From positions 21,665-85,664 of the forward strand of contig JACPZP010000125.1 in assembly GCA_016195405.1 (NCBI GenBank): 64,000 bases of DNA. The letters run 5' to 3'. A program made the position numbers and the translations under genes. Positions 3,636 through 63,678 of the stretch are shown one piece after another. Position 1 is the first letter of the stretch; the number at the start of each line of letters is the position of its first letter. The stretch is from Planctomycetota bacterium. GTDB taxonomy: Bacteria; Planctomycetota; Planctomycetia; Gemmatales; Gemmataceae. The notes under the pieces are model-generated. The model was not told where the DNA came from. It did no database searches and saw only the letters and a list, made by a program, of their open reading frames with translations.

Positions 3636-4147
3636 TATTTCTTCTCAGGAGTATTCGAGCGCACCACGAGGACTTGCACCTTGGCCTCGGTGTCATAACC
3701 CAGGTTGAGGTTCACCTCGTAGAGGGCGCATTCCTTGATGGCGCCTTCGAGACGCACCATTTCCGGCTCGACTTTCAGGTTTTTGCCCTTGAGCGCCTTG
3801 GATATCTCCGGCGCCCCGACCGAGCCGTAGAGATGGCCTTCTTCGTTGGCGTTGGCCTCGATCGTCAAATGTTGCACGCGCGCGATCTGCTCGGCCAGCG
3901 CCTTAAGGTCGGCGATCTTGGCCTCGCGGGCCTGGTTGACGCGCTGCTTGTAAAGCTCCAGAAGCTTCAGGTTGTGCGGCGTCGGTATCGTGGCCAAGCC
4001 GTTGGGCACGAGATAATTTCGGCCATAGCCCGCCTTGACCTCGACGAGGTCGCCCTGCTTGCCGAGGTGGGCGACGTCCTCGGTCAAAACGAGCTGCATG
4101 CCGCCGTGCTTGCCCTTCAAGATTTGATTGCGTTTTCTGGTTTGCAT
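3635..4147 (-). CDS. rplI: 50S ribosomal protein L9 (true start probably the internal Met, MQLVLTEDV)
   Basis: MQLVLTEDVAHLGKQGDLVEVKAGYGRNYLVP matches the L9 N-domain consensus. Confidence 0.9.
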   Translation of the reverse strand: MQTRKRNQILKGKHGGMQLVLTEDVAHLGKQGDLVEVKAGYGRNYLVPNGLATIPTPHNLKLLELYKQRVNQAREAKIADLKALAEQIARVQHLTIEANANEEGHLYGSVGAPEISKALKGKNLKVEPEMVRLEGAIKECALYEVNLNLGYDTEAKVQVLVVRSNTPEKK

Positions 4148-10301: not shown

Positions 10302-11468
10302 TTACTGCTTTGCACGCGCGAGGTCGCCCGGGCCGGGGGAGAGGGGAACCACATGTTCAAGGGCAAATTCGTGCTTCACGCCGTCGAGGTCACGGCCGGC
10401 TTTTAGGTTGCGGACGCGCGTCTTGAGAGTCTTCAACGCGCCTCGGTCCTTTTCGATGACGGCGGCGGACCGGCCCATCTTGACGGCCACCGCCAGTGTC
10501 GTGCCGCTGCCCGCGTAGGGATCGAGCACGGAATCGCCGGGACGGGTGCATATCTCCATCAGAAAGCGTAAAATCGCCTCCGGCTTCTTCGAATCCTTGA
10601 AGTCGCAACCCGGGCCGCCCTCTCTATATATGGTGGGAACGACTTCGGTGAAGTCGAGATCATTCGTGGGCAGCAACGGACGCCCGGCGGCAAGCTGCGA
10701 CTGAAAATAGACGCCGCTACGGCGTTTGCCGTTGCCGGTTTGGAACCAGCGATAGCCGAGGCCGTCGCGCTCCAATCCGGGCACCTGAATCAACAAGTTC
10801 TCGCCCAGATGCTTGAGATGCGTCTCGTACCACTCTCCCGACCAGTTCGCCGTCGCCAGCTTGCCCGCAATGACGTACCGGCGCAGAGCATCCGGGGAGT
10901 ATCCGGTTTCGGCGATCTCGTACTGATGAGGCAGATAGACTTGGACGTTCTTGCCGCGGACCACCATCGTCTGGTCTGGACCGCCCAGCAGATGGATCGA
11001 ATGAATGAACTTATCGGGCCGCGAAGGCGTTTGCGTTGTGATGAAGCGCGCCTGCGGGTTCTTCCTGTAGATAAGCAGGTATTCATAGAGATCGTGAAAC
11101 GTGGCATTGATCATCAGTTGCCGTTGCCGATGGCGAATCTTGACGGGAAAGAGGCCGACGAAACATTTCTCGCCCAGCGCGTCGTCCAGAACTTGCTTGA
11201 GAGTGAATAGCTCGGTTTGATTGATCGACGCGGCGAGAAAGCCGGCCGGGCCAAGCAAATCGGCCGATCCTTGCACGACTTCGCGAACTTCCTTGCGCCA
11301 ATCCTTGTTGCAGGCGTCGCGAAAGAGCTTCCGCGCGCCGCGCAGCCGGCCCGTGTTGTAGGGAGGATCGAGGTAGACCAGTTGGCAACGCCATTCGGCG
11401 GTTCTGAGAAAGGCGAGGGCCCGCGTGTTCTCCTGAGGCATGAGGAGATAGCGCGGGCCCTTATGCAT
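10302..11468 (-). CDS. DNA amino-methyltransferase (N6-adenine or N4-cytosine), beta-class motif order, orphan
   Basis: 388 aa. Catalytic motif IV LDPPYN near the N-terminus and SAM-binding motif I VLDPYAGSGTT near the C-terminus. No adjacent endonuclease. Confidence 0.85.
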   Translation of the reverse strand: MHKGPRYLLMPQENTRALAFLRTAEWRCQLVYLDPPYNTGRLRGARKLFRDACNKDWRKEVREVVQGSADLLGPAGFLAASINQTELFTLKQVLDDALGEKCFVGLFPVKIRHRQRQLMINATFHDLYEYLLIYRKNPQARFITTQTPSRPDKFIHSIHLLGGPDQTMVVRGKNVQVYLPHQYEIAETGYSPDALRRYVIAGKLATANWSGEWYETHLKHLGENLLIQVPGLERDGLGYRWFQTGNGKRRSGVYFQSQLAAGRPLLPTNDLDFTEVVPTIYREGGPGCDFKDSKKPEAILRFLMEICTRPGDSVLDPYAGSGTTLAVAVKMGRSAAVIEKDRGALKTLKTRVRNLKAGRDLDGVKHEFALEHVVPLSPGPGDLARAKQ

Positions 11469-15352: not shown

Positions 15353-15994
15353 CTATTGCACTTTCATGATCGAATCTCGTCCGCCCTTCAGCACCGCCCG
15401 CACTGGACTCGCATCGAATCCAGCCAACTTCAACGGCAGCGCGATCAACTCGTAGGTTCCCTCCGGTACGCCATCAAGCACCAATCCTTCGAGAATCGCC
15501 ATGTCGTGCCGCAGGAACATTTGGTGCGCCGGCAGATCTTTTGAATCGAACAAGTCCACGCTCGGCGTGTCGATGCCAATCAATACTACCGCTTGTTGAT
15601 GGAGCATGTCCACCAGGACGGGGCTGAGCGCGGCGAAGTCCGTGTTGAAATGATCGGGATTCGGAAACGTCCCCGTCCAGAGCAGCACTCGCGACGCGGT
15701 GATCGGCGAGGTAAGCATCTCGGCCGTGATGCACGCCCCGCGCGGAACCTTGACGCGCATCACCTGACATGGGCCAATGTAATAGTCGAGGCGGCGCTGA
15801 TCAATCGACTGGCCGTCGGCGGCATAATGGCTCGGGGCGTCGGCGTGAGCGCCCAGGTGTACCGTGGCGCGGAGGGCCGACAGGGTGATGCTGTCGCCGC
15901 GCTTCATGTCGAGCAGCACTTCGCGCCGCGGCGGCACGTCGCCGGGCCAGACTGCGAGCCGTTCCGTTATGGCTGGTGAAATATCGTAGATCAT
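15353..15994 (-). CDS. kynB: Kynurenine formamidase (arylformamidase, cyclase family). Start taken at the internal Met MIYDISPAI, preceded by GGAGGAA
   Basis: HxGxHxD-like metal site (VHLGAHADAPSH) and the cyclase-family fold pattern. ORF track gives 15353..16117. Confidence 0.8.
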   Translation of the reverse strand: MIYDISPAITERLAVWPGDVPPRREVLLDMKRGDSITLSALRATVHLGAHADAPSHYAADGQSIDQRRLDYYIGPCQVMRVKVPRGACITAEMLTSPITASRVLLWTGTFPNPDHFNTDFAALSPVLVDMLHQQAVVLIGIDTPSVDLFDSKDLPAHQMFLRHDMAILEGLVLDGVPEGTYELIALPLKLAGFDASPVRAVLKGGRDSIMKVQ

Positions 15995-16188
15995 CCGGTT
16001 CCTCCAGGCCAAAAATGGCTTGCAGGGCTGTCCGCGGGGGGTCGCAATGCACGCAATAATGCCATTAGTTCCCCATTCCCCTGAACGTGATTTTAGTGGT
16101 CGTCCGCCCGGTAACAAACGGCTTGTTGCCAGAACCCTTTTTCTGGCTTATGGTGACGAAGGACCTCTCTAACTCACGAGGTGACGCC

Positions 16189-16692
16189 ATGACGCTCCAA
16201 GCCCCGTTCAACCTCCAAACGTGGATCAACGAGAATCGGAACCTCTTGAAGCCGCCGGTGGGCAACCACATGCTCTTCAATCAGAACTTCATGGTTATGG
16301 TCGTGGGCGGGCCCAACCAGCGCACCGATTTTCACGTCAATCCGACCGAAGAGTTGTTTTACCAGCTCGAGGGCGACATCGTCTTGCGGGTCATGGAAAA
16401 GGGGCAGCCACGCGACATTCCCATCAAGCAGGGCGACATGTTCCTATTGCCGCCGGGCATCCCGCACTCACCGCAGCGGCCCGCCAACACCGTCGGCCTG
16501 GTCATCGAGCGCAAGCGTCCCGACAACGCCGACGACCACATGCGCTGGTTTTGCAAGAAATGCGGCGCCGTCATCCACGACGCCGAGTTTCACCTTGTGG
16601 ACCTGGGCAAGCAACTCAAACCGATCATCGAAGAATACAAGAGCAAGAAAGAGTTGCAAACGTGCAACGCGTGCGGGACCGTCAATGAATGA
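16189..16692 (+). CDS. nbaC: 3-hydroxyanthranilate 3,4-dioxygenase (cupin)
   Basis: MTLQAPFNLQTWINENRNLLKPPVGN, the FHVNPTEE...GDMFLLPPGIPHSPQR cupin metal site, and the C-terminal CxxC...CxxC rubredoxin-like site. Confidence 0.9.
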   Translation: MTLQAPFNLQTWINENRNLLKPPVGNHMLFNQNFMVMVVGGPNQRTDFHVNPTEELFYQLEGDIVLRVMEKGQPRDIPIKQGDMFLLPPGIPHSPQRPANTVGLVIERKRPDNADDHMRWFCKKCGAVIHDAEFHLVDLGKQLKPIIEEYKSKKELQTCNACGTVNE

Positions 16693-16695
16693 AAC

Positions 16696-17706
16696 ATGAA
16701 GATCGACCTCCACACCCACATCCTGCCCAAGACTTGGCCCGACCTGCGCCAGCGTTACGGCTACGGCGGCTTCGTGCAGCTTGAGCATCACGGCCCCGGG
16801 TGTGCCCGGATGACAATCGACGGCAAGTCGTTCCGCGAAATTGAGGACAACTGCTGGGACCCCAAGCGCCGCATTGCGGATTGTGAAAGCCACGGCGTGG
16901 ATGTGCAGGTGTTGTCCACCGTGCCCGTCATGTTCAGTTATTGGGCCAAGCCGCAAGACACGCTCGATCTCGCCCGGCTCCTCAATGATCATTTGGCTGA
17001 ACTGGTGGCCTCGCACCCACGCCGATTCATCGGGCTCGGTACGCTGCCGATGCAAGACGCCGCCTTGGCAATCCGCGAGCTGGAGCGGTGTGTCAACGAT
17101 CTCGGTTTCCCCGGCGTGCAGATCGGCAGCCACGTCAACGGCTGGAACCTCAATCATCCAATCCTGTTCCCGATTTTTCAGCGAGCCGAGAAGCTTGGCG
17201 CTTGCATCTTCGTGCACCCGTGGGACATGCTGGCGAAAGAGCGGATGGAGCAATACTGGCTGCGCTGGCTGGTCGGCATGCCCGCGGAAACGTGTCTGGC
17301 GATCTGCTCGGTCATTTTCGGAGGCGTCTTGGAACGGCTGCCGAAGCTCCGCATCTGCTTCGCGCACGGCGGCGGCAGCTTCCCCGGCACCGTCGGCCGC
17401 ATCGCCCACGGCTTCGAAAGCCGACCCGATCTTTGCGCCGTCGACAACGCCGTCGATCCGCGCGCCTATCTGGGCAAGTTCTATGTCGATTCATTGGTGC
17501 ACGACGCCGCGGCCCTACGGTATTTGCTGGAATTGATGGGCGTCGATCGCGTGGCGCTAGGGAGCGACTATCCGTTTCCACTGGGAGAAGCCGTGCCGGG
17601 GCGGTTGATTGATTCTATGGCGGAACTTTCCGCGGACGTTCGCAAGAAACTAATGGCGGAAAACGCACTAGATTTCTTAGGATTGAAGCAGGAAGGGTTT
17701 TGTTGA
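16696..17706 (+). CDS. 2-amino-3-carboxymuconate-6-semialdehyde decarboxylase (amidohydrolase_2)
   Basis: [11 protein letters not shown]...[11 protein letters not shown]...[14 protein letters not shown] family. 3 bp downstream of the HAAO gene. Confidence 0.9.
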
Positions 17707-17722
17707 GGCAGAGCATCTTGCC

Positions 17723-19000
17723 ATGACAGATGTCTTTCAGCCCGGAGAAGATTTCGCCCGGCAGCTCGATGCCGAAGATCTGCTTCGCCATTTCCGCGAC
17801 CGGTTCCACTTCCCGCGCCGGCCGAATGGCTCACCTTATCATTACTTTTGCGGCCATTCGCTCGGGCTACAACCCAAGGCGGTGCGCCACCTGATCGAAC
17901 AGGAGCTGGACGACTGGGCAAGGCTCGGCGTCGAAGGGCACTTCGAAGGAACGACTCCGTGGTACAGCTACCACGAGATCTTTCGCGATAATGGAGCGAG
18001 GCTAGTCGGCGCCCAGCCCGGCGAGGTTGTGATGATGAACAGCCTCACCGTGAATTTGCACCTGATGTTGGCTACGTTCTACCGACCGACTGGCAAGCGC
18101 CGCAAGATTCTAGTCGACAGCCCGACCTTCCCGTCTGATCTTTTCGCCGTGCAGACACATTTACGCCATCGAGGGGCCGATCCGGCGAACGATCTCCTCG
18201 TCGCCCGGCCGCGGTCCGGCGAGCACCTATTGCGCATGGAAGACGTCGAAACGCTGCTTAATACGCATGGCCATGAGATTGCCGTCGTACTTTGGAACGG
18301 CGTCAACTTTTACACGGGCCAACTTTTCGACTTGCAGCTGCTGAGCGAGATCGGCCATGCGCACGGCTGCGTGGTTGGGCTCGAATTGGCGCATGGAGCA
18401 GGCAACGTCGTTCTGCAACTCCATGATTGGCAGGTCGATTTCGCCGTTTGGTGCAACTACAAGTATCTGAATTCAGGACCTGGCGCGGTCGCCGCTTGCT
18501 TCGTGCATGAAAAACATGGCCGAAACCTCGATTTGCCGCGCCTCGCCGGCTGGTGGGGGACCGATCCGCATACGCGCTTTCAAATGGAAGACGGCGACTT
18601 CAAGGCGCAACCCGGCGCCGAAGGCTGGCAAGTGAGCAACCCGCCGATCTTCTCCTTGGCGCCTGTGCGGGCATCGCTGGCGCTTTTTGACGCAGCGGGA
18701 ATGCCCGACCTCCGCGCCAAATCCGAAAAACTGACCGGTTACCTCCACTACCTGCTCGAAGGGCAGGCAGCCAAGGCGTTCGAGATTATCTCGCCGGCCC
18801 GTCTCGAAGAACGCGGCTGTCAGCTATCACTTTTGGTGCATCGCGAGCCGCGCAAGCTCTTTGACGCCTTGCACGGTGCGGGAATGCTGTGCGATTTCCG
18901 GGCGCCCAACGTGATTCGCGTCGCGCCCGTGCCGCTCTACAATTCCTTTGAGGATGTGTGGATGTTTGCCAACACCGTTAAGACGCTGTCGATGAGTTGA
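17723..19000 (+). CDS. kynU: Kynureninase (PLP-dependent)
   Basis: 425 aa. YHYFCGHSLGLQPK...NSLTVNLH...KYLNSGPGAV (PLP lysine region). Confidence 0.9.
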   Translation: MTDVFQPGEDFARQLDAEDLLRHFRDRFHFPRRPNGSPYHYFCGHSLGLQPKAVRHLIEQELDDWARLGVEGHFEGTTPWYSYHEIFRDNGARLVGAQPGEVVMMNSLTVNLHLMLATFYRPTGKRRKILVDSPTFPSDLFAVQTHLRHRGADPANDLLVARPRSGEHLLRMEDVETLLNTHGHEIAVVLWNGVNFYTGQLFDLQLLSEIGHAHGCVVGLELAHGAGNVVLQLHDWQVDFAVWCNYKYLNSGPGAVAACFVHEKHGRNLDLPRLAGWWGTDPHTRFQMEDGDFKAQPGAEGWQVSNPPIFSLAPVRASLALFDAAGMPDLRAKSEKLTGYLHYLLEGQAAKAFEIISPARLEERGCQLSLLVHREPRKLFDALHGAGMLCDFRAPNVIRVAPVPLYNSFEDVWMFANTVKTLSMS

Positions 19001-20364
19001 TTGTGTCCATTTCAGACGCCCCTCAATTCACGATCGTCGGCTCGGGCCTCGCCGGCGCGCTCTTGGCGTGCTACCTCGGCAAGGCGGGTAAACGCGTCGA
19101 CCTCTATGAGAAGCGTTCCGATCCACGCCGTCATGGGGCGGAGAGCGGTCGTTCGATCAACTTGGCCCTTTCCGTTCGCGGCATCAAGGCGCTAGAGGAA
19201 GTTGGGCTGGCGGACCGCGTGCTTCAGAACGCCATTCCGATGCGCGGGCGAATAATTCATTCGCCGACCGGACAACAGACCTTTCAGCGGTACGGCAAAG
19301 ACGAAAGCCAGGCGATCAACTCGGTCTCACGGGCGGGGCTCAATCTCATCTTGATCGAAGCGGCGGCGCGATATCCCAACGTGCGGATGTACTTCGAATC
19401 TCGCTGCACGGGGGTCGATCTCAAAGACATGGCGGTCGAGGTGGTGGAGGAAGTTGGAGTCTGCAATCAGGAGGCTGACACCCCCCGTTCGCCGCGACAT
19501 ATACAATTCGAGACCCTTGTCGGGGCGGATGGGGCGTATTCAGCGGTGCGGGCGGCATTGGAGAAGCAGGAACGCTTCAACTTTCAGCAGGATTATCTCT
19601 CGCACGGTTACAAGGAATTGACGATTCTGCCGGGACAGGGCGGGACGTTTTGTATGGAGAAGAACGCCCTGCACATTTGGCCGCGACATTCATTCATGAT
19701 GATCGCGCTGCCCAACATCGACGGCTCTTTCACGTGTACCCTTTTCTGGGCGTGCGAAGGGCCCAACAGCTTCGCGGCCATTCAGAGCGAAGCGGACCTG
19801 CTTCGATTCTTCAAGGAACAATTTGCCGATGCGATGCCGTTGTTGCCCAACCTCGCAGAAGAATATTTCCACAATCCAGTCGGGCCGCTGGTAACGATGC
19901 GCTGCTCGCCGTGGCACTTCGAGGATCGGATAGTGCTACTGGGAGACGCGGCTCACGCGGTCGTGCCGTTCTTGGGTCAAGGGATGAACGCCGCCTTCGA
20001 GGATTGCACGGTGCTGGCGCGGTGTTTGGAAAAACAACAGACTGAGGCGGCATTCCAAGACTACGAGCGACTGCGCAAGGAACATGCCGACGCGCTCGCA
20101 GACATGGCGATCGATAACTTTCTCGAGATGCGTGACCGCGTGGCTTCGCGGTGGTTTCTCATTCGCAAGAAGGCGTCGCTCCTGCTCTATAAGCTGTTTC
20201 CCGTCTGGTACGTGCCGCTCTACAACTTGATTCAGTTCACGACCACACCGTATGCCGACGCGCGTGGCCGTGCACGGAAGCAAGATCGCATGGTTTGGCG
20301 CGTCGGAATTGGTGTTCTGCTCGTCCTCACCGGCCTCTTCGTTTGGCTATCTGCATTTCGATAG
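18997..20364 (+). CDS. kmo: Kynurenine 3-monooxygenase (FAD-dependent), C-terminal membrane anchor
   Basis: 455 aa. FAD GxGxxG (IVGSGLAGALLA), the DG/GD motifs of class A flavin monooxygenases, hydrophobic C-terminus. Start overlaps the kynU stop. Confidence 0.85.
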   Translation: MIVSISDAPQFTIVGSGLAGALLACYLGKAGKRVDLYEKRSDPRRHGAESGRSINLALSVRGIKALEEVGLADRVLQNAIPMRGRIIHSPTGQQTFQRYGKDESQAINSVSRAGLNLILIEAAARYPNVRMYFESRCTGVDLKDMAVEVVEEVGVCNQEADTPRSPRHIQFETLVGADGAYSAVRAALEKQERFNFQQDYLSHGYKELTILPGQGGTFCMEKNALHIWPRHSFMMIALPNIDGSFTCTLFWACEGPNSFAAIQSEADLLRFFKEQFADAMPLLPNLAEEYFHNPVGPLVTMRCSPWHFEDRIVLLGDAAHAVVPFLGQGMNAAFEDCTVLARCLEKQQTEAAFQDYERLRKEHADALADMAIDNFLEMRDRVASRWFLIRKKASLLLYKLFPVWYVPLYNLIQFTTTPYADARGRARKQDRMVWRVGIGVLLVLTGLFVWLSAFR

Positions 20365-29298: not shown

Positions 29299-31466
29299 TT
29301 ACCGCACAAAAACAAACTCATCCAAATTAAACAGCAGCCACGCGAAGCCAGTTAGCCGCGCCGCGTCATTGCCAAGATACGCCAGTGCTCGGTTCATCTC
29401 CGACTCCGAAGACGGGCGTGCGATCGCCGTTCGATAGCCCAGGTCCACGGCGGCTTTCAAATCCTCGCCAACGGCTTTCTTGAGCCTTTCGGCGAACTTC
29501 GTGGTGGCCTTTTCGATCACGTCGCTATTCATCAGGAACAGGGCCTGCGGCGCGGTGACGGTGTGCGTCCTTATCGGACAGGGAGCGCGGCCGTCGTCGG
29601 CATCGAACGCTTGCAGGAAGCTCGGCATGACATCGCGGTTGTTCGCGTAGCCGCGGATGATGTAGGCGCCGCGACGTACGAGAGGCGAAGAAGAGGGGCG
29701 AGGGGCGAGCACTGATAATCCATCCTTCGGATCAAAGGACGGGCCGCCGATCGTCAGGTCGAGGCTTCCGGCCGAGCCGAAAATCGAATCCCAAACCGTC
29801 TCGGCGTCGAGACGCCGCAGCGGGAAACGCCAAAGATGCGTATTTCCAGGATCGATTTTCAGATTGGCCTCTCGCTCCTCAGACGTTCGCCGGTACGCTC
29901 CTGAAGTAACGATGAGCCGGTGCATCGCCTTCATGCTGAAGTTCTGCTTCACGAATTCGGACGCCAACCAATCGAGCAATTCCGGATTGGACGGCGATCC
30001 ACCCAGCTTGCCGAAATCGTTGGGCGTCTTTTGCAAACCCTCGCCGAAGTGCCACTGCCAGAGGCGATTCACCGCTACTCGGGCGAAAAGCGGGTTTTCG
30101 GGCGCGGTGAGCCATTGGGTGAATGCCTCGATCCTGCCGTTGCGGAAGTCGATCTTGGGCGTGGTAAACGGCCAGCCGGGGCCAACCTCGTTCCTTTTTT
30201 GCGGCCTGGCGGGATCGCCGCTCGTCAGGATGTAGCTCTTTTCCAGTTCCTTTTTCCGATCGACTTCCACGGTCCAGAAGACAGGCAGCGTCAAATCTGC
30301 TTTGGTTTTCTCCAATTGCTTGAAGCCATTGACCAGCGCTTGGTACTTTTGACGATCCGTTTCCGGCATGATCCCCATGATCTTGCCCACGTCGATGCGC
30401 AGGATCGGGAAGTAATCGTCGGCGATCTTCTCCTCAAGGGCGGGCGCTGTTTCTCGGGCTTGAGAATGACGGCCCGCACGTCAGCGGGAAGCTGGGCCAC
30501 GCGCTCATCGAACAGTTTCTTCTTGTAAGGAGCGATCAACTCGAGAATGGGCGTCTGCACTGCCGCCAACTTTTTGTCCAGCGCATCGAGCGCGTGGCCA
30601 TGCGCCGTCACCTCGGCCGGATTGGCGAGCGTGACCTTTCTCAAAACGAGCGGATCGAAGAGCGCTTTCATGGCGTAGAAGTCACGCTGCTTGATGGGGT
30701 CGTACTCGTGGTCGTGGCATTTGGCACAGCCGACGGTCAAGCCCATGAAAGCCGTGGACACGGTCTCGACGGCCGCGATGGGCAATTCCTGGATTTCCTT
30801 GTCGCCGTGAACGACCGCGCCGCGGGCGAGAAACCCCAGAGCGAATAGGTCATCCGGCCGAGGCGCCACGCGCTCTTGAAAGCCGAGAACCGAGACCTCG
30901 GTGCGCGCAGTGGTTCGGCAGCCGGTCAACTGTGCGCACACGAATTGGTTGTAGGGCATATCGCTGTTGAGGGCGTTGATGACCCATTGACGCCACAGAT
31001 GGATGCCGGGCGCGGCGATCATGCCCTCGTCTACGTCGGCGTAACGGAGCACGTCGAGCCAATGCCGCGCATAGCGGACGCCGTGCTGCTCGCTGGCCAA
31101 AAGCCGATCGACCACTTTTTCATAGGCATCCGAAGACTGGTCCTGGAGAAACGCCTCCTGTTCGGCGGGACTCGGCGGGATGCCGACCAAATCGAGGTGG
31201 ACGCGCCGCAGCAGAGTGCGCCGATCGGCGGCTTCTGCTGCTTTCAGGCCTTTCGTCTGATGTTGGGCTGCGATAAAGGCGTCGATGGGATTGGCCGACT
31301 TGGCGGCTCCAACCGGAAGCGGCGGGCGGATTACGGGCTTGAGATACCAGGGCTTCGGAGTCTTGTCGTCGGTGTCGTCCGGCTTTGACGATCCGGCACC
31401 TGTTCCTGCAAGCCCGAGCGCGGACACAAGCATGCAAACACACACAGGCCAGCGAAGCGTTGCCAT
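29299..31466 (-). pseudogene. DUF1549/DUF1553 (PSCyt/PSD) family gene, interrupted by a -1/+1 frameshift near 30440-30455
   Basis: ORFs 30291..31466 (signal peptide, DUF1549-like N part) and 29299..30390 (DUF1553-like C part) overlap by 100 bp. A continuous sensible protein (...ILKPEKQRPALEEKIADDYFPILRIDVGKIMGIMPE...) is recovered by a 1-nt shift in the CGCCCGCCC run. Confidence 0.7.
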
Positions 31467-35822: not shown

Positions 35823-36707
35823 TCATCCGCCCTTGACGGTGATCTTCTTCGGCTTGACAGCCTCAGCCCTCGGCAGGTGGATCGTTAGGACGCCGTTGAT
35901 GAGCTCGGCGGCAATCTTCTGCCAGTCGATGCGCTCGCTGATCGAAAAGGTCCGATAGAAATCGCCGACGCCGTATTCGGACAAGAGGTAATTCGCCCCT
36001 GCGTGGCGGGGAGCGCAGCGGCCATCGATGATGAGTTCGCCGTTTTCGAAACGCAGGTCCACGTCTTCCGGTTTCACCCCGGGAAGGTCGGCCAGCAACA
36101 GCGATTCCTCGTCGGTCTCCATGATGTCAACACGGGGAGTGAAAGAGAGGCCGAGCGCAACCACGGGTTTATCGAGCTCGGTACGCACTTCTATCTTGTT
36201 TGCGGGGATGTTCACGATATCGTTGACGCTGATGCGTCGGGGCTTGGCGGCTTCGTTCTTGGGCAAAGTCACCAAGAGGACGCCGTGTTCGAAACGGGCC
36301 TCGACCTTCTCGGCATCCACGTTCACGGGCAGCATGATCGTCCGGCTAAACTGGCCGAACCCGCGTTCTTGCCCGTACCAGGCGCCTTTCTCCGGGACGC
36401 CATTGTCCAGCGCGCCTTGGTCCAGCGCGTACCGCCGGCGCTCACCCTGGATAGTCAGCTGGTTGCCATCCGTTACGTAGATTTCGAGATGGTCGAGCTG
36501 CATGCCGGGTAATTCCGCCTCGGCGTAAACTTTGTCGTTGTCGCCCCATATGTTCACCGGCGGATAGGATTCCGCAAGGGCTGGGCCCGTTTCCGCGCCG
36601 AAGCGCCTGCAAACCCGGTTCACTTCTTCCTGAAACTCCCGCAATGGGCGCCACGAAAAGTTCTGCCAACGGGGTACCAGCATTTGTTGCTTGTTGGTCT
36701 TCATCAT
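35823..36707 (-). CDS. Small heat-shock protein with two tandem alpha-crystallin (Hsp20) domains
   Basis: 294 aa. Two ACD units, each ending in the GVLTV/I..PK motif (GVLLVTLPK; GVLTIHLPRAE). Confidence 0.85.
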   Translation of the reverse strand: MMKTNKQQMLVPRWQNFSWRPLREFQEEVNRVCRRFGAETGPALAESYPPVNIWGDNDKVYAEAELPGMQLDHLEIYVTDGNQLTIQGERRRYALDQGALDNGVPEKGAWYGQERGFGQFSRTIMLPVNVDAEKVEARFEHGVLLVTLPKNEAAKPRRISVNDIVNIPANKIEVRTELDKPVVALGLSFTPRVDIMETDEESLLLADLPGVKPEDVDLRFENGELIIDGRCAPRHAGANYLLSEYGVGDFYRTFSISERIDWQKIAAELINGVLTIHLPRAEAVKPKKITVKGG

Positions 36708-37082
36708 GATGAATTCCTCAGTTAAAGGTCGGGCAATTTCTGCCGGACCACGCGGTCCAGATCATTAGTCGAATGAACTCAGTCGAAACACGGGCTTTTT
36801 AGAAGACTGTCGCCGTAACAGGGCCTTGGTCCAAAACAGGATAGGCGGCTTGATTGAGATGGATCAGGCGGCAAGTGGTGAGAGGGACCCTGAAAGAGAA
36901 CTTTCAGTCCTCACTTCGTATTCTCTGCTTGCACTCTAGAACTGTCAAGCCAAAAATATACTTTTTCTGTCTGTAGTCTCTAAAATAACCTTCTGACTCC
37001 TCCGGAATGCAAGGAATCTCGCTGTTCATCTTCCGGTCAAGCGGCATCACAGACAAGGCGATGTGTCGCTCTTACCGTTTGC

Positions 37083-37676
37083 ATGTCCGACTGCCGGCCC
37101 GTAGACTCAAAGTTTATGACCGACGTCACCCAGATTCTAAATGCCATCGAGCAAGGCGACCCGCACGGCGCCGAGCAACTTCTGCAGGTCGTCTACGATG
37201 AACTGCGCAAATTGGCGGCGGAAAAGATGGCACAGGAAAAACCGGGGCAGACCCTAGAAGGCACGGCCCTGGTCCACGAGGCCTACCTTCGCTTGGTGGA
37301 CGTCAAGCGAGCGCAGCACTGGAACAGCCGCGGCCACTTCTTTGCCGCTGCCGCCGAAGCCATGCGGCGGATACTGATCGAAAGCGCGCGCAGCAAGGCG
37401 CGCGAGAAACGCGGCGGCAACTGGCAGCGTGTTGATTTTGAGGATCTCAACGTAGCGACTTCCGTCTCCCCCGATCAACTGCTCGCCTTGGACGATGCAC
37501 TCGTGCGGCTAGTGGCCGTTGACCGCGTGGCCGGTGAACTCGTCAAGCTTCGTTATTTTGCCGGTCTGGCTCTGGACCAGGCCGCCGCGGCCCTTGGCGT
37601 CTCGACGGCAACAGCTTATCGGCACTGGGCTTACGCGCGCGCGTGGCTGCACAGCGAACTGTTGAAAGAAACGTAG
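37083..37676 (+). CDS. ECF sigma factor (Planctomycete STK-associated type, ECF43-like)
   Basis: 197 aa. Sigma-2 (ALVHEAYLRL) and sigma-4 HTH (AAALGVSTATAYRHWAYAR). Immediately upstream of a Ser/Thr kinase gene. Confidence 0.85.
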   Translation: MSDCRPVDSKFMTDVTQILNAIEQGDPHGAEQLLQVVYDELRKLAAEKMAQEKPGQTLEGTALVHEAYLRLVDVKRAQHWNSRGHFFAAAAEAMRRILIESARSKAREKRGGNWQRVDFEDLNVATSVSPDQLLALDDALVRLVAVDRVAGELVKLRYFAGLALDQAAAALGVSTATAYRHWAYARAWLHSELLKET

Positions 37677-37759
37677 CCTGGGATTATTCTGCCGTCGTGA
37701 GAAAACCTCCCAGGCTACGTCGCACTGGTTAATAGAGGCGAAGCCCCTGTGAGGATGCC

Positions 37760-40546
37760 ATGAACGCTTTCGAAGACAATGCCAGGTCGATTTTCCTCGC
37801 CGCCCTGGAACGTGCGCCCGACCAATGGCCCGCTTTCCTGGACGAGGCCTGCGGCGACAATGCTGAGCTGCGGGCACGGGTCGATCAACTCCTGCACTCC
37901 CACCAGGCGATAGGCAGCATTCATGCGATAGGCAACATTCATGGGGGCGGCGCAGAGAAGCAAGATGGCACGCGCGACCAGTCCATGGCCGAGCGCCCCG
38001 GCGCCGTCATCGGCCCGTACAAGCTCCTGCAGCAGATTGGTGAAGGCGGCTTCGGGACGGTCTTCATGGCTGAGCAGACCCAGCCGGTGCAGCGCAAAGT
38101 CGCCCTCAAGGTCATCAAGCCCGGCATGGGCGGCCGCCAGGTGATCGCCCGCTTCGAGGCGGAACGACAAGCCCTGGCCATGATGGACCATGTCAACATC
38201 GCCCGCGTCCTCGACGCCGGGACAACGGAATCCGGCCTGCCGTATTTTGTCATGGAGCTGGTCCACGGAGTGCCCATTACCAAGTATTGCGACGACAACC
38301 AACTGACGCCGCGCGAGCGCCTGGAGCTGTTCGTGCCGGTGTGCCAGGCGATCCAGCACGCCCACCAGAAGGGCATCATTCACCGCGACATCAAGCCGTC
38401 CAACGTCATGGTCACGCTCTACGACGGCAAGCCGGTCCCCAAGGTGATCGACTTCGGCGTGGCCAAGGCGACCGAGCAAAAGCTGACCGAGCGGACCCTG
38501 TTCACGCAGTACGGCACCATGGTCGGCACGCTGGAATACATGAGCCCGGAGCAGGCGGAGATGAGCGGGCTGGGCGCCGACACCCGCAGCGACATCTACT
38601 CGCTGGGCGTGCTCCTGTACGAGCTCTTGACGGGCAGCACGCCGCTCTCCCACAAGCGGCTCAAGGAAGCGGCCTATGCCGAGATTCTCCGCATGATCAA
38701 GGAGGAGGAGCCGCCCAAGCCGAGCACGCGGCTCTCCGACTCGGGGGAAGCGCTGGCGTCGATCTCGGCGCATCGCCACATGGAACCGGCCAAGCTGACG
38801 AAGCTGGTCAAGGGCGAGCTGGACTGGATCGTGATGAAATGCCTCGAGAAAGACCGCAACCGCCGCTACGAGACCGCCAACGGCTTCGCCGCCGACGTGC
38901 AGCGCTACTTGGACGACGAGCCGGTGCTGGCTTGCCCACCGTCGGCAGTCTACCGGCTCGGTAAGTTTGTCCGCCGCAACCGCGGCCAGGTCATCGTCGT
39001 TGCCGTCGTGCTGCTCTGCTTGATCGGAGGCATGGTAGGCACGACCTGGGGCCTCATTCGTGCAATAAACGCAGAGGAACAGGCTAAGGACGATGCCAAG
39101 AAAGCGAAGCGCTCCGATGAGGAGGCGCGGGCGGTGCTCGGCTTCTTCCAGGAACGGGTTCTGTCAGCCCTGCGGCCGAAGGGCCTGGAGGGGGGGCTCG
39201 GCAAGGACGCCACGATTCGCGACGCCCTGGACGCGGCCGAGCCGGAGATCGAGAAGGCCTTCGCCGGACAGCCCCTCGCAGAGGCCACCATCCGCGACAC
39301 GCTGGCCACCAGCTACTGGCACCTCGGCGAAAACGAGGTAGCCATCCGGCAATATGAGCGCGCTCTGGCCCTTCGTCGCCAAGCTCTCGGTCCCAACCAC
39401 CGCGATACGCTCATGAGCATGAACAACCTCGCCAATGCCTACGGAGACGCCGGCCGCATCGCGGACTCGCTGGCGTTGCACGAACAAACACTCCGGGAGC
39501 GCCGTGCCCAGTTGGGGCCCGAGGACATCGATACGCTGGAAAGCCTGAACAACCTCGGCATGTTTTATATTGATGCCGGACGGCCTGCGGAGGCTGTGCC
39601 GCTGCTTGAGGAATCGTTCCGGAAAGCCAAAGCAAAGCTCGGCCCCGACCACGTGGATTCCCTGTCAGGCATGGGTAATCTGGTCCGGGGATACGTCGAG
39701 GCCGGCCGACCGACCGAGGCTTTGCCGCTTGCCCTGGAGGTGGTCGAACGCTGCACGCTCAAACTTGGGCTCGACCACCCGGGCACGCTCATCGCGCGGC
39801 AGAACTTGGCGCTGACTTACCGCGACATGGGTCGGCTAAGCGAAGCCTTGCCGCTGTTTGAGGATGTCCGCAATCGCGCCGAGGCTGTGGTCGGCGGTGA
39901 TCATCCCGGTGCGCTGAGCGGCATGTATTTCCTCGGCGTGGCCTATCAATGCATGGGCCGATTGGACGACGCCGGTCCCCTTCTGGCGGAGACACTCAAA
40001 CGGTGCAGAGCCAAGATAGGCTCGGACCACCGGAAGACGCTCATGGTCATCGCCGCCTTGGCCGCGACCTACGAGGAGGCCGGCGAATTGGGCAAAGCGG
40101 AACCCCTCGGCCAGGAGTTGGTGTCCGGCACTCGCCGGCGGCTCGGTCTGGATCACCCCGACACCAACGCAGCCCTGACCCAGCTCAGCCTGATCTTGGT
40201 GAAGCAGCACAAGCTCGACGACGCCGAGCCCCTCGCGCGCTAGGGCCTGGCCCTAGTGGAGAAGAAGCAGCCGGACAGCTGGCAGCGTTTCCAAGCTATG
40301 AGTGTGCTTGGCGCTGGCCTGCTCGCCCGGAAGAAATACGCGGAAGCCGAACCACTTCTACTCCAGGGTTACGCCGGGCTGCAGGAACGGGCCGCCAAGA
40401 TGCCGGCGCCCGCCAAGAAGCACCTCGGCGAGGCCCTTGAGCGGCTCGTGCGGCTCTACGACGCGGCCGGCCAGCCGGAGAACGCGGCCGAGTGGCGGCG
40501 GAAGTTCGAGGCGGAAAAGAGGGAAGAAAAAAAGCCGGGACCGTGA
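37760..40546 (+). CDS. Ser/Thr protein kinase with TM segment and C-terminal TPR array. Reading frame interrupted by a single in-frame TAG at 40241..40243
   Basis: Kinase motifs ([27 protein letters not shown]), TM ([14 protein letters not shown]), >8 TPR units. The TPR sequence continues in the same frame after the TAG (...[22 protein letters not shown]...). Confidence 0.85.
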
Positions 40547-47893: not shown

Positions 47894-48271
47894 GGTAAGC
47901 TCCGCAATTCGTTGTCGCTTTCGCCGGTGCCGCCACTCGACACCCTAATTATAGTCTATAGACCATACGCCTTGGCCTAGCGTATGCCGCATTTGCTTTC
48001 AAGCAATCCGTTTGGGTCAACGGGTCAAGCGTGCATTCTCAGTATCGCGGCGTTTCGGAATTCTCGCGAATTCCGCTACGAGTAGCTCTTCCGGCGTAAT
48101 TGCCTGTGCGTCCTGATGTCATTATGTTCAGATCTTCCTTTTTTTCGCAAAGCTCCGCTTTCCAGAATAGAATAACCCACCAGTAGCCTAATCGCGCGCC
48201 TCACGGCGTGAGAGCGGGGGAACCAACTGGGGCGGCTTTGGCCGCCTCTGGGGCGTAGGTCCGCAGAAGTT

Positions 48272-48327
48272 GTAGGACGGATTTGCAATCCGTCACTTCG
48301 ACTGGACGGTTTGCAAAACCGTTCTAC
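48272..48327. repeat. Second pair of GGACGG...CCGTCC REP-like palindromes (GTAGGACGGATTTGCAATCCGTCAC and TGGACGGTTTGCAAAACCGTTCTAC)
   Basis: Same family as 848..915. Confidence 0.7.
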
Positions 48328-48456
48328 ATTGCGGATCGGGGTACTTTCAAGCCCTAGCCCGTCAGCTAACCCCGTCGGCAGGTCCGGGCGCGTTGCCTGG
48401 GCCGTAATTGAAAGGGCACCCCCGTCTTTCTCCGTCCCGACGAAGAGCCCCATCTC

Positions 48457-50760
48457 TTGCCAAGGTGCGACATGTTTGCGCTGCCGTCTCTCTTCGCCGA
48501 TGGCTTTCCGACCTGGACCGAATTAGCGCCCGTATTGTCCCAAGTCGTCGTTGGTCTGGCCCTGCTTACGGCGGTCGGCGTGATTGCCGCCTGGTTGACA
48601 CTGCGCCGCATACCGAACCAGCAAGTGGGCGTTGTCGAAAAACTTTGGTCGCGCGGCGGCTCCGTTCCTGAGGGGAGCATCATCGCCCTGAACGGCGAGG
48701 CCGGTTACCAGGCCGACCTTTTGCGCGGCGGCATCCACTTTGGACTTTGGCGCTGGCAGTACCGCGTTCACAAGGTCCCGCTGGTGACCATTCCGCAAGG
48801 CAAGATCGGCTACGTCTATGCCCGTGACGGCGAGCCGCTCTCGCCCAGTCAAACGCTGGGCCGCGTCGTCGATTGCAACAATTTTCAGGACGCCCGCAGA
48901 TTTTTGAGTGAAGCCGAAGCCGTGGTCGGCGGCGAAGCCGCGAGCGGTTCGGTGCGAGGACAGCGTGGCCGGCAGCGGGTGATTCTGCGCGAAGGCGTTT
49001 ACGCCATCAACCCTGCCCTGTTCGTGGTCATTACCGACGACGCCGTCTATTACCTCCCGCAACTTTTGGGGGCGCGCGAGGGCGAGGTCGTCGCCGGCTG
49101 GCAACAACAGCTCCGCGAAATCGAAGGCTTTAGGCCCCTCATCGTCGGCGCGGCGGTGGCGACCGTCGATCCACTGCGCCCGGAGACCGCCGGCAACGTC
49201 GACAGCATCGCCATCATCACCGTCCACGACGGGCCATCGTTGGCGCCCGGCGAGATCATCGCGCCGCCGGTCGGCACCACGCCCGGCGAGTCGAATTACC
49301 ATAGTAACTATCAAGATCCCGAAGCGTTCCTGCGCGCGGGCGGCCGCCGCGGCCGGCAGTACCTGCCGCTCACCGACGGCACCTATTTCCTCAACCGCTG
49401 GTTCGTCACCACCGAAATCATTCCCAAGACCGTCGTGCCGATCGGCTACGTCGGCGTCGTCGTCAGCTATTACGGCAGGCCGGGCCGCGACCTCTCCGGA
49501 GAGGCATTCCGCCACGGCGAGCGTGTCGCCGAGGGAGAACGCGGCGTCTGGGAGAGGCCGCTCGGTCCCGGCAAGTATCCGTTCAACACCTACGCCGGCA
49601 AGGTCATCCTCGTGCCCACGACTAACTTCGTGTTGCACTGGATCACGGGCAAGTTCGAAGCGCACCGCTATGATGAAAGCCTTCGCTCCATCGATCTCGT
49701 GACCAAGGACGCGTATGAGCCGATGCTGCCGCTTTCGGTGGTGGTGCACATCGACTACCAAAAGGCGCCCAGCGTCATTCAGCGGTTTGGCGACGTCAAG
49801 AAGCTGATCACGCAGACGCTCGATCCGCTCTTGAGCGCGTTCTTCCGCGACGTGGCCCACAAGAAGACCATGCTGGAGCTGCTCCACCAGCGCGACGCCA
49901 TCCAGCAAGAGGCGCGTGAGGAGTTGCGCCGCAAGTTTCTCAGTTTTGACATCGAGTGCGTCGACGTGCTCATCGGCAAGCCCGACACGGCCGAGGCCGG
50001 CGGCAAGATTGAAGTGCTGCTGGAACAGCTTCGATTACGGCAGCTTTCCATCGAGCAGTTGGAGACGTACGACCGGCAGCGGGCCGCGGCGGACAAGCTG
50101 AAGACATTGAACGACGCCCAGGCGCAAGCGGCCATGCAGACGCAGTTGACCAACACGCAAGTGCAAGTGCGGATCGCCGAAAGCCAAGCGGAAGCCGACC
50201 TGGCCCGCTCCCGCAAACAAGCCGACCAGACCATCGTCGTCGCAGAGGCGGAGCTGGCCCGGTCGCGCCGTCAGGCCCAACAATTCGTCGTCCTGGCTGA
50301 CGGCGAATTGGAAAAAGCGCGGCGTCAAGCCGAGCAGACCGTGGTCACGGCGCAGGCGCAAAGCCAAGAGCGCGTGCTGGCCGGCCGCGGCGAGGCGCAG
50401 CGCGTCCTGCAAGTCGGTTTGTCGGAGGCGTTGGTGCTCTTGCGCAAGATCGCCTCGTTCGGCGATCCACGGCTCTACGCGCTTTCCGGTGTCGTCGAGC
50501 ACCTGTCCCACAGCAGCCAACCGCTGGTTCCCGAACGCGTCTTCATGGCCGGCGGCGGCAACGACGGCGCCAGCGCGGCCGGCGGGGCCAGCGGCATGCT
50601 CGGAATGCTCATCAACCTGCTCGTCGCCGAGAAAGCTGGCTTTCACCCCGCTGACGGCAACGGCGAGACCGACGAACCGGCAGCTCTAAAGGAAATCGGC
50701 GAACGGTTGACGCGCGAGGCGATGGCGTCTCTGCAGAAAGAGCCGGCCGCAAACAAGTAG
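48457..50760 (+). CDS. Flotillin-like SPFH/Band-7 domain protein with long coiled-coil C-terminus
   Basis: 767 aa. N-terminal TM helix, SPFH core, then ~250 aa of ARRQAEQ / ELARSRRQAQQ heptad-like repeats. Confidence 0.8.
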   Translation: MPRCDMFALPSLFADGFPTWTELAPVLSQVVVGLALLTAVGVIAAWLTLRRIPNQQVGVVEKLWSRGGSVPEGSIIALNGEAGYQADLLRGGIHFGLWRWQYRVHKVPLVTIPQGKIGYVYARDGEPLSPSQTLGRVVDCNNFQDARRFLSEAEAVVGGEAASGSVRGQRGRQRVILREGVYAINPALFVVITDDAVYYLPQLLGAREGEVVAGWQQQLREIEGFRPLIVGAAVATVDPLRPETAGNVDSIAIITVHDGPSLAPGEIIAPPVGTTPGESNYHSNYQDPEAFLRAGGRRGRQYLPLTDGTYFLNRWFVTTEIIPKTVVPIGYVGVVVSYYGRPGRDLSGEAFRHGERVAEGERGVWERPLGPGKYPFNTYAGKVILVPTTNFVLHWITGKFEAHRYDESLRSIDLVTKDAYEPMLPLSVVVHIDYQKAPSVIQRFGDVKKLITQTLDPLLSAFFRDVAHKKTMLELLHQRDAIQQEAREELRRKFLSFDIECVDVLIGKPDTAEAGGKIEVLLEQLRLRQLSIEQLETYDRQRAAADKLKTLNDAQAQAAMQTQLTNTQVQVRIAESQAEADLARSRKQADQTIVVAEAELARSRRQAQQFVVLADGELEKARRQAEQTVVTAQAQSQERVLAGRGEAQRVLQVGLSEALVLLRKIASFGDPRLYALSGVVEHLSHSSQPLVPERVFMAGGGNDGASAAGGASGMLGMLINLLVAEKAGFHPADGNGETDEPAALKEIGERLTREAMASLQKEPAANK

Positions 50761-50809: not shown

Positions 50810-51658
50810 TTGGAGGTTGCAATGGTTACTACATTGGATGAAAGCCAAGACGTCATGCAGGTCTGTCGCAATGGCCACGTCATCACGGACCGTCTGCGCG
50901 GCGATCCCGACAGCGGGCGATCTCACTGCGACCGCTGCGGCGCTGTGACGTTCTACCACTGCCCGACATGCGGCGGCGAGTTCCCCGGCGCGCTGGATGT
51001 GACCGGCTTGGCTCCCATAGGCGGCAGACCGGCGCCGCACTACTGCTTAATGTGCGGCGCCGCGTTGCCTTGGGTGCGAAGGGCCCGACCTGCACCCGAG
51101 CCGGTCGCTGCACTCGAAGGCCTCCTGCGCCGGCTGCCGCTTGCTATCCGCCAACTTCGCTGGCGCCAGGGAGACCGGCCCCCCTACCGCGTGGAGGACG
51201 AGCGCGACCTCGAAGATCTGCTCCGAGCCTTGCTGACATTGCCCTTCGATGATGTACGCCTTGAAGGCCGCACACCCGCGTATAGTCCACGAAATCGAAC
51301 CGACTTGCTGTTGTCCAGAGGAAAGATCGCGCTCACCGTGAAGTTCGCGCGGCCCGACCTGCGCGAGCCGCAACTGGCGGAGCAACTAATGCAAGACGCC
51401 CTGTACTACCGCGAGCGCGGCGGCTGCCGGACGCTCGTGGGCTACGTCTACGATCCGGAAGGAACCCTTCGTGACATCCGCCGGGCCGAGAGCATCGGCG
51501 CCGGATGGGCGGAGGGACTGGAGGTGCGCTGCATCGTGAGCGGATTAGTGGATGCCGAAGGTGGGAATTTCACGACTCCGCTTGAGATCGGAACTTTCTT
51601 GCCTCAGGTTGAGCCGATTAGGCCGTTTGCTAACGGCGGTGCAGGCTCGCTTCGATGA
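50810..51658 (+). CDS. Hypothetical protein with an N-terminal 4x Cys-pair zinc ribbon and a C-terminal restriction-endonuclease-like region
   Basis: 282 aa. CRNGH...CDRC...CPTC...CLMC, then YRVEDERDLEDLL...RTDLLL...IALTVKF (E / D / xK-like spacing). Confidence 0.45.
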   Translation: MEVAMVTTLDESQDVMQVCRNGHVITDRLRGDPDSGRSHCDRCGAVTFYHCPTCGGEFPGALDVTGLAPIGGRPAPHYCLMCGAALPWVRRARPAPEPVAALEGLLRRLPLAIRQLRWRQGDRPPYRVEDERDLEDLLRALLTLPFDDVRLEGRTPAYSPRNRTDLLLSRGKIALTVKFARPDLREPQLAEQLMQDALYYRERGGCRTLVGYVYDPEGTLRDIRRAESIGAGWAEGLEVRCIVSGLVDAEGGNFTTPLEIGTFLPQVEPIRPFANGGAGSLR

Positions 51659-61505: not shown

Positions 61506-63182
61506 TTGAAGGAGGAACGGACCATGCCTGAACCGAGAGGCCGTCGCGAGGGGCAACCCCTCAAGAGCCGAACCCGTCCCCGGCCCGATCCGGACAGGTA
61601 TGCAGACGACCGCAGAAGCGATGACCGCGGAACCGATGATCGCAGACCCGATGATCGTCGGCACGACGACCGGCGGCCTGAAGATCGCAGGAGCGACGAC
61701 CGTCGCTACGAACAGCGACGGGATGAGCGTGACGAACGGCCTCGCGACGAAAGGCCTCGCGAGGAACCTCGTGACGAGCGTGCTCACGGCGAGCCTCGCC
61801 GTGAGGACGAGCGCGACGAACGCGATCGCCCGGCGCCGCAGGGGTATGTAGAAGACGAGAATTTCACGGGCGGCTTCGACGCCGAGACCAATAGCCGCTA
61901 CGAGGAAATCAAGCGCGGCACCACCTTTATCTCGCAACTCCAGCAAATGACGATGCCGCAACTCCTCAAGACCGCCAAGGAGGAGTCGCTGTCGGAATAC
62001 ACCGGCCTCAAGAAGTAGGACCTGATCTTCAAGATTCTCAAGGAGCGCGTCAAACAGAACGGCCTCATGTTTGGCGAAGGCACGCTGGAAGTGCTTCCCG
62101 ACGGTTTCGGCTTCCTGCGCAGCCCCGATTACAATTACCTCCCCTGCCCTGACGACATCTACATTTCCCCAAGCCAGATTCGCCGCTTCGGTCTCAGAAC
62201 CGGCAGCGTGGTCGCCGGCCAAATTCGCCCACCGAAGGAAAACGAGCGCTACTTCGCGCTCCTGCGTGTCGAGGCCATCAATTACAACGACCCCGAGATT
62301 CTGACGCAGAAGGTTGTCTTCGACGACCTGACGCCCTTGCACCCCAACCAGCGCCTTGTGCTGGAGGCCGATCCGCAAGAAATCAACATGCGCGTCATGG
62401 ACCTGGTGACGCCGATCGGCAAGGGCCAGCGCGGCCTCTTAGTGGCGCCGCCGCGCACCGGCAAGACAATCCTTCTGCAAAAGATGGCCAACAGCATCCT
62501 CCGCAATCACGCCGAATGCTACGTCATCGTGCTGCTAATCGACGAGAGGCCCGAAGAAGTGACCGAGATGGAACGGACCGTGCGCAGCCCGCATGCCGAG
62601 GTCGTCAGCTCCACATTCGACGAGCCCACGAGCCGCCACGTCCAAGTCGCCGAGATGGTGATCGAAAAGGCGAAGCGCATGGTCGAATTCGGCACCGACG
62701 TTGTGATCCTGCTCGATTCGATCACCCGCCTCGCCCGCGCCTACAACACCGAAGTGCCGCACTCCGGCAAGATTCTGTCCGGCGGCGTCGACGCCAACGC
62801 GCTCCATAAGCCGAAACGCTTCTTCGGGGCGGCACGAAACATCGAAGAAGGCGGCAGCCTAACGATCTTGGCGACCGCCCTCATCGACACCGGCAGCCGC
62901 ATGGATGAAGTGATTTTCGAAGAATTCAAAGGCACCGGCAATATGGAGTTGCACCTCGACCGCCGCCTGGTCGACAAGCGCATTTGGCCGGCGATCGACG
63001 TCAACGCCTCCGGCACGCGTAAGGAAGAATTGCTCACCTCCGCCGAAGAGTTGCGCCGCGTCTACATCCTGCGCAAGGTGCTCAGTGACATGAACCCCGT
63101 TGAGGCAATGGAGTTGCTTATCAGCCGGATGGGCCGAACCAAGAGCAATAATGAGTTTCTCAATAGCATGAACTTGTCGTAG
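61506..63182 (+). CDS. rho: Transcription termination factor Rho with Arg/Asp-rich N-terminal insertion; frame interrupted by an in-frame TAG at 62016..62018
   Basis: ORF 61506..62018 (RD-rich region plus ...LSEYTGLKK) and ORF 62067..63182 (CSD RNA-binding, Walker A/B, Q and R loops) share one frame. The codons between them read [16 protein letters not shown], the conserved Rho N-terminal helix (E. coli RKQDIIFAILK). The TAG replaces the conserved Gln. Confidence 0.85.
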
Positions 63183-63187
63183 AGATT

Positions 63188-63454
63188 TTGAGCGCTGCTG
63201 GGCATAATGACGTGCAGGCTCGGTTGGAACGCTCTATGGATACAGCTACCTACACGGTTATCTACGAGTTGGCGGAAGAAGGCGGCTACTACGCGCACAT
63301 TCCAGCCTTGGAAGTAACTACGGAAGGCGAAACGCTTGAGGAGGCCAAGGAAATGGCCCGCGACGCCATCGAATCCACGCTGGCCTGCCTGAAAGAGCTT
63401 GATTTGCCCTTTCCACAGGAGGTCGCCAGCGAGCGCGTCGGAGCGGGGGCATGA
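63188..63454 (+). CDS. hicB: HicB-family antitoxin (UPF0150), probable start at MDTATYTV (63236)
   Basis: YTVIYELAEEGGYYAHIPALEVTTEGETLEEAKEMARDAIE is the HicB N-domain consensus. Confidence 0.7.
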   Translation: MSAAGHNDVQARLERSMDTATYTVIYELAEEGGYYAHIPALEVTTEGETLEEAKEMARDAIESTLACLKELDLPFPQEVASERVGAGA

Positions 63455-63678
63455 AAGCCCGCCTCCCGAGCCTTAAACCCGCCGAAGTCATCCGCATTCT
63501 GGAACGCAATGGGTTCCACGTACTTCGATCCACCAAACACCGGACATACGCTGATGACGCCAATCCGCCTCATCTTGTCCGAGTTCCTTACCATGGCCGG
63601 GACCTCAAAAGCAAGACGCTACGTTCCATCGTTCGCCAGGCTGGATGGACGGAAGAGGAGTTTCTAAAGAAACTGTAG
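63451..63678 (+). CDS. hicA: HicA-family mRNA interferase toxin
   Basis: 75 aa. LKPAEVIRILERNGFHVLRSTKHRTY...PYHGRDLKSKTLRSIVRQAG. ATGA overlap with hicB. Confidence 0.75.
   Translation: MKARLPSLKPAEVIRILERNGFHVLRSTKHRTYADDANPPHLVRVPYHGRDLKSKTLRSIVRQAGWTEEEFLKKL

Follow-up and report, generated by a model that had tools for sequence, protein, structure and literature searches.

The window analysed here, a stretch of 64,000 nucleotides of planctomycete DNA, contains a rho gene with a TAG codon inside its reading frame. The question is whether this codon is an error of the assembled sequence, a real nonsense mutation or a stop that is read through. The initial annotation described two same-frame rho ORFs joined across a single TAG, and one-frame translation of 61506-63182 confirms this. 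The gene is otherwise intact over 552 codons, from ATG 61524 to TAG 63182. Its frame is not uninterrupted: the internal TAG, which reads CTC AAG AAG TAG GAC CTG ATC with its neighbours, is the sole break and divides 164 from 387 codons. The coordinates of this and the related features are collected in Table 1.

Table 1. Positions of the rho features and of the two further lesions in the window
Feature	Position	Strand	Basis or remark
Shine-Dalgarno-like AGGAGG	61510..61515	+	8 nt 5' of the likely rho ATG, read from sequence
rho 5' segment, 164 codons: RD-rich N-terminal extension and first part of the Rho_N helical domain	61524..62015	+	
In-frame TAG, ancestral codon CAG, equivalent to E. coli Gln32	62016..62018	+	homologue, codon and structure comparisons
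rho TAG context TAGGACCTG, one base off the perfect palindrome CAGGACCTG	62016..62024	+	
rho 3' segment: remaining Rho_N, OB-fold RNA-binding domain, RecA-type ATPase, normal TAG terminator 63180-63182	62019..63182	+	
First ATG 3' of the TAG, equivalent to E. coli Ile49, only candidate restart codon	62067..62069	+	
Second in-frame TAG, in the Ser/Thr kinase-TPR gene 37760..40546	40241..40243	+	100 codons ahead of the normal end
C-runs, CGCCCGCCC on the minus strand, with a putative one-base loss splitting the PSCyt2/PSD1 gene 29299..31466	30438..30446	-	frame restoration

The start of rho is likely ATG 61524, not the in-frame TTG at 61506 from which the ORF was originally drawn. The AGGAGG listed in Table 1 precedes this ATG, and an independent gene call on a Logan contig (L124) begins at it too. 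The conceptual read-through product matches three Pfam families in the order Rho_N (PF07498, residues 138-180, E 1.7e-12), Rho_RNA_bind (PF07497, residues 185-258, E 1.9e-33) and ATPase (PF00006, residues 289-496, E 1.6e-24). It is also collinear with E. coli Rho (1pv4, E 4.9e-173, query 15-428 against chain residues 4-417), and the Rho structures of Thermotoga (3l0o) and M. tuberculosis (7oqh) match as well. By the 1pv4 alignment the TAG, residue 165, corresponds to Gln32 in the N-terminal helical subdomain, and Met 62067 corresponds to Ile49 at the start of the OB-fold. The upstream ORF had been described as an RD-rich insertion plus the first helix. Its RD-rich character stands, but the segment is an N-terminal extension that precedes Rho_N, and the TAG lies inside Rho_N, leaving roughly the N-terminal half of the helical bundle in the upstream ORF.

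Like Rho of the M. tuberculosis type, the planctomycete protein combines Rho_N, an OB-fold and a RecA-type ATPase with an Arg/Asp-rich low-complexity N-terminal region. The M. tuberculosis protein contains an N-terminal disordered extension or insertion, termed NID (PMC8828861, PMC13650167), whereas the RD-rich segment found here precedes Rho_N and is not inserted within the N-terminal domain. A further difference is the TAG at the Gln32 equivalent, which interrupts the reading frame of the planctomycete gene. The nearest homologues, among the matches listed, are Rho proteins from MAGs of Gemmataceae and Gemmatales with ~90% identity over the conserved part. The C-terminus FLNSMNLS is common to homologues, and the gene order polA-coaE-rho-...-ribH is common to the loci of the nearest ones. 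In the window a HicB-like (UPF0150)/HicA toxin-antitoxin pair (63236-63678, plus strand) sits between rho and ribH; in a related contig, L125, ribH directly follows rho with no such pair between them.

The residue replaced by the TAG is invariant among relatives. In a MAFFT alignment the corresponding column contains Gln in each of the 120 closest homologues. The surrounding motif can be located in 116 homologues, always with Gln, and it reads YTGLKK-Q-DLIFKIL in 98. The codon at this site was recovered from 61 species-representative loci in several phyla, where it is CAG in 58, CAA in two and CAC in one. Public metagenome contigs were also matched to the 29 bases around the site, any base being allowed at the variable position; 39 contigs match, and all 39 have C there. 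The matches of a metagenome DNA scan are relatives at 69-83% identity only, all of them with CAG. TAG occurs at the site in none of these homologues, species loci or metagenome contigs. The initial annotation had placed the TAG at a conserved Gln position and proposed a comparison with orthologues. That comparison bears it out: the position is Gln in all aligned proteins and a Gln codon in 60 of the 61 species loci, with no TAG in any relative.

These comparisons show that the ancestral codon is CAG, from which the rho TAG differs by one C-to-T transition, a change strongly supported as the event. No relative carries a stop, and the TAG is therefore specific to this strain rather than a feature that has evolved. 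The initial annotation had listed three explanations; a C-to-T change from CAG stands as the event, and suppression or read-through is disfavoured because no relative has a stop here and TAG terminates genes elsewhere in the window.

The rest of the gene is well preserved and looks functional. Of the alignment columns, 338 show a conservation of 97% or more across the 120 homologues, and rho departs from them only at the TAG, at F135 and at K354R. The Phe at position 135 is lineage-specific; it also occurs in P0456, which of the fragments resembles the N-terminus most closely. K354R is a conservative change. A decaying pseudogene would be expected to contain several lesions or relaxed conservation; rho has a single lesion.

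A second in-frame TAG is present in a Ser/Thr kinase-TPR gene (Table 1). A six-frame scan for stops with coding-like sequence on both sides gives five same-strand cases in the window. Three of these are ordinary boundaries (3-HAO/amidohydrolase, L25/Pth and DUF5640/methylase), and the other two are the rho TAG and the TAG at 40241. In-frame stops at 16690, 11498, 10304 and 5874 were considered as lesions and rejected as ordinary gene boundaries. The window also contains a kynurenine-pathway cluster (15353-20364). Its minus strand encodes a putative cyclase/kynurenine formamidase, and its plus strand a 3-hydroxyanthranilate dioxygenase, an ACMSD-like amidohydrolase, a kynureninase and a KMO-like flavoprotein.

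The 100 codons past the kinase TAG encode the usual C-terminal tail of the family, with 7452 matches that are typically C-terminal in much longer proteins. At the column of the TAG, 147 aligned family members contain mostly acidic residues (E in 110, D in 14, Q in 10 and A in 7). These members are distant paralogue-like relatives, with which an ancestral codon of either GAG or CAG is compatible.

The two in-frame TAGs share their sequence context. Both precede GNCCTG, as TAG GAC CTG in rho and TAG GGC CTG in the kinase gene. The motif TAGGNCCTG has two copies in the window on either strand, and these are the rho TAG and the kinase TAG only. In the predicted genes GNCCTG follows only 10 of the 2909 codons that are one step from TAG. 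A second amber arising at random would therefore match the context of the first with a probability below 1%, a figure that takes no account of the motif having been chosen post hoc. This is suggestive of one context-specific cause behind both TAGs, and the two are probably related by a common cause.

The nature of the context suggests what such a cause may be. The unmutated rho site is the palindrome CAGGACCTG and resembles a methyltransferase-type site; a C that is methylated can be deaminated in the cell, or a methylation-sensitive sequencer can miscall it as T. The kinase context, TAGGGCCTG, lies inside a perfect 17-nt palindrome, CTAGGGCC-T-GGCCCTAG (40240-40256). A putatively methylated CAGGNCCTG site, either miscalled or deaminated, is one suggested example. 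A 5-methylcytosine in a CAG codon is a classical hotspot of amber mutation, as at the CCAGG sites of lacI, and the resulting alleles likewise arise by a single CAG-to-TAG step. The rho site differs from the Dcm site CCAGG in reading GCAGG, and four other CAGGNCCTG sites in the window are unchanged. An ancestral kinase codon of GAG, not CAG, would weaken a common C-to-T cause.

Two other candidates for a common cause were rejected. Quasi-palindrome correction fits the kinase gene, where it makes the 17-nt palindrome, and does not fit rho, where it breaks CAGGACCTG. A DddA-type deaminase acts in a TC context, and the preceding base is G at rho and C at the kinase site. The window encodes an apparently orphan N6/N4 DNA methyltransferase (10302..11468, minus strand), between tpiA and a lipocalin-like gene, and a protein with a DpnII/MboI-like restriction endonuclease domain (50810-51658, plus strand). 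Either of these may be relevant to a methylation-linked explanation of the TAGs.

Two in-frame stops in conserved genes, both TAG with the same pattern over the six following bases and both in genes that are otherwise intact, could also indicate that the codon is read through. A suppressor tRNA with a CUA anticodon, or read-through in the TAG-GNCCTG context, would give full-length Rho and kinase; we consider this very improbable. In programmed recoding, such as Sec at UGA and Pyl at UAG, an in-frame stop is likewise found within an otherwise intact gene, but the rho stop is unconserved, is followed by no RNA element and stands in place of an ordinary conserved Gln. The predicted RNA fold of the 130 nt from the rho TAG is no better than that of shuffled sequences (z +0.47), and the same is true after the kinase TAG (z -0.65). 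The only tRNA in the 64-kb window is Thr-CGT, with none that has a CUA anticodon. Rfam models run over the window match only this tRNA and a c-di-AMP riboswitch, and no relevant family at the TAGs. To our knowledge there is no bacterial read-through signal of the TAG-GNCCTG form. On this sequence evidence the rho TAG does not look like a programmed recoding signal. The riboswitch (ydaO/yuaA, 48175-48395, plus strand, 49 bits against a gathering threshold of 38) lies directly 5' of a gene for an SPFH/Band 7 protein of 767 residues (48457..50760).

The use of TAG elsewhere in the window bears on the same point. At least 11 Pfam-supported genes are terminated by TAG, including ssb, L25 and rho itself. 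The claim that TAG is a genuine stop elsewhere in the window holds for ssb, ispF, the KMO-like flavoprotein and the ECF sigma gene, which end at TAG at family-normal ends (ssb at ...EEDIPF, ispF at profile position 154/155), and the genes for ribosomal protein L25 and an aldehyde dehydrogenase are also TAG-ended. In a rough gene model 23 genes end in TGA, 17 in TAG and 12 in TAA, where the 17 include the two internal TAGs of rho and the kinase gene and two ORFs treated as antisense artefacts. The in-frame continuation past the TAG of L25 leads into pth; read-through would fuse L25 to Pth, and efficient suppression would therefore be costly. That a Gemmataceae-like planctomycete tolerates or uses TAG-GNCCTG ambers, by a natural suppressor or context read-through, with TAG still terminating elsewhere, is given a slimmer chance again. 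Genome-wide reassignment of TAG to an amino acid such as Gln would account for a stop at a conserved Gln. Such reassignment is next to impossible, being refuted by the TAG-terminated genes of the window: TAG closes roughly a quarter to a third of the predicted genes, and ssb (DIPF), IspF (154/155) and Rho (FLNSMNLS) stop at it exactly at family-typical C-termini.

A third lesion in the window is a frameshift. PSCyt2 (DUF1549, 30291..31466) and PSD1 (DUF1553, 29299..30390) are encoded on the minus strand in different frames with a 100-nt overlap. By Pfam architecture, we take it that PSCyt2 and PSD1 are normally one protein, encoded next to a DUF1501 gene. One base added in the C-runs at 30438-30446 (CGCCCGCCCTT) would rejoin the frames and give ...KPEKQRPPLEEKIADDYFPILRID..., the exact lost base being placed by frame restoration and not by an aligned orthologue. 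The remaining genes that were compared with Pfam look complete. In planctomycetes the kinase/TPR and PSCyt/PSD1 families are presumably large and rich in paralogues, and real pseudogenes among them would be unremarkable.

Independent sequence covers part of the window. It is 100% identical to five same-strain Logan contigs (L081-L084 and L124) from the runs SRR12113414 and SRR12113415, which together are ~7.4 kb long and cover ~5.6 kb of the window when overlaps are counted once. These contigs were found through HicA, the ECF sigma gene and coaE with an ATG start. Around rho they stop at 61787 and resume at 62876, and none of them covers 62016, 40241 or the frameshift. Exact-protein look-ups found no record of the 371-aa C-terminal or the 164-aa N-terminal rho ORF, and polA, coaE with a TTG start, the 425-aa ORF 17723..19000 and the 96-aa ORF past the kinase TAG were also unmatched. 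Homology searches found no identical fragment around the rho TAG, the best match being 86% identical.

Two of the Logan contigs, L083 and L084 (window 36083-38120), come from different runs and both end exactly at 38120, in the kinase domain. The shared end suggests a branch in the de Bruijn graph, caused by k-mers common to paralogues or relatives, and not a gap in coverage. The conserved core of rho is probably missing from the assemblies of those runs for the same reason.

In our judgement the likeliest explanation, at an even chance, is that base 62016 is an uncorrected consensus error, arising in base calling or polishing. The miscall would probably be tied to the local context CAGGNCCTG, for example through a methylated cytosine read as T, and the organism would make normal Rho at its full length of 552 residues. 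In nanopore consensus sequences the errors that remain are mainly substitutions at methylation motifs and errors of homopolymer length (PMC6591954). The window likewise has two substitutions in one motif and one base missing from a C-run; its three lesions would match the nanopore pattern. We infer that the three may share a technical origin in which methylation is involved. The second TAG in the same 9-nt context and the homopolymer frameshift make a technical or context-specific mutational cause more probable.

The invariance of the Gln codon and the absence of decay elsewhere in rho argue for a consensus error, as do rho genes broken by in-frame stops in other contigs. Two such contigs come from related Gemmataceae-like MAGs. 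In L125 (ENA ERZ26871208 contig_66005_np1212, 2501-3994), which its name suggests is a nanopore-polished assembly, rho contains two in-frame TAC-to-TAA stops, 11 codons apart. In L126 (ENA ERZ25039465 contig_26847, 2501-3962) rho contains an in-frame TAG and frameshifts, and polA is split. Truncated Rho proteins on long contigs mostly have frameshifted tails, and broken rho genes are frequent among public assemblies of the clade. Recurrent truncation at ...GLKK (P0454, P0465) was considered as further evidence and rejected, the ends of fragments being scattered across the region like the ends of contigs or reads.

Other observations argue against a consensus error. The window is exact wherever the Logan contigs overlap it, and the assembly is therefore not generally error-ridden. 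The density of lesions, three in 64 kb, is low for long-read consensus errors, and the four intact CAGGNCCTG sites show no change. In addition the kinase and PSCyt/PSD1 lesions sit in the families taken above to be paralogous, where they could plausibly be real pseudogenes.

Several of these points support a real and recent nonsense allele, in which a spontaneous C-to-T change converted Gln165 to amber in the sequenced population. We hold this possible, at somewhat less than even probability. C-to-T is the commonest type of spontaneous mutation, and the change could possibly have occurred by deamination of a putatively methylated cytosine at a CAGGNCCTG site; a methylation hotspot and a miscall would account equally well for the palindromic context of both TAGs. 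The exact agreement with independent contigs also fits such an allele. It is, however, carried by no relative, and as rho is without other signs of relaxed selection it could only have arisen extremely recently. A further requirement is that all three lesions, in ~55 genes, are real and independent.

Such an allele could survive in three ways. Rho may be dispensable in this organism, or a near-cognate tRNA-Gln may read UAG and allow some full-length Rho to be made. Alternatively, translation may resume at Met 62067 and yield a Rho without the helical N-terminal subdomain. This ATG is 48 nt downstream of the TAG and is the first in-frame ATG, GTG or TTG past it. Such a product would have no counterpart of E. 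coli residues 1-48, and the ATG has no Shine-Dalgarno sequence at canonical spacing, the nearest being AAGGAG 21 nt upstream.

A consensus error and a nonsense allele both fit known biology, and only the unlikely read-through would be a surprise. If the TAG is a consensus error, annotation pipelines would call rho a pseudogene or two genes, and TAGGNCCTG would serve as a flag for motif-specific error and perhaps as a pointer to a methylated CAGGNCCTG site. If it is real, it would be a natural planctomycete rho nonsense allele, bearing on the dispensability of Rho or of its N-terminal helical subdomain in this phylum, and it might indicate a methylation-driven amber hotspot.
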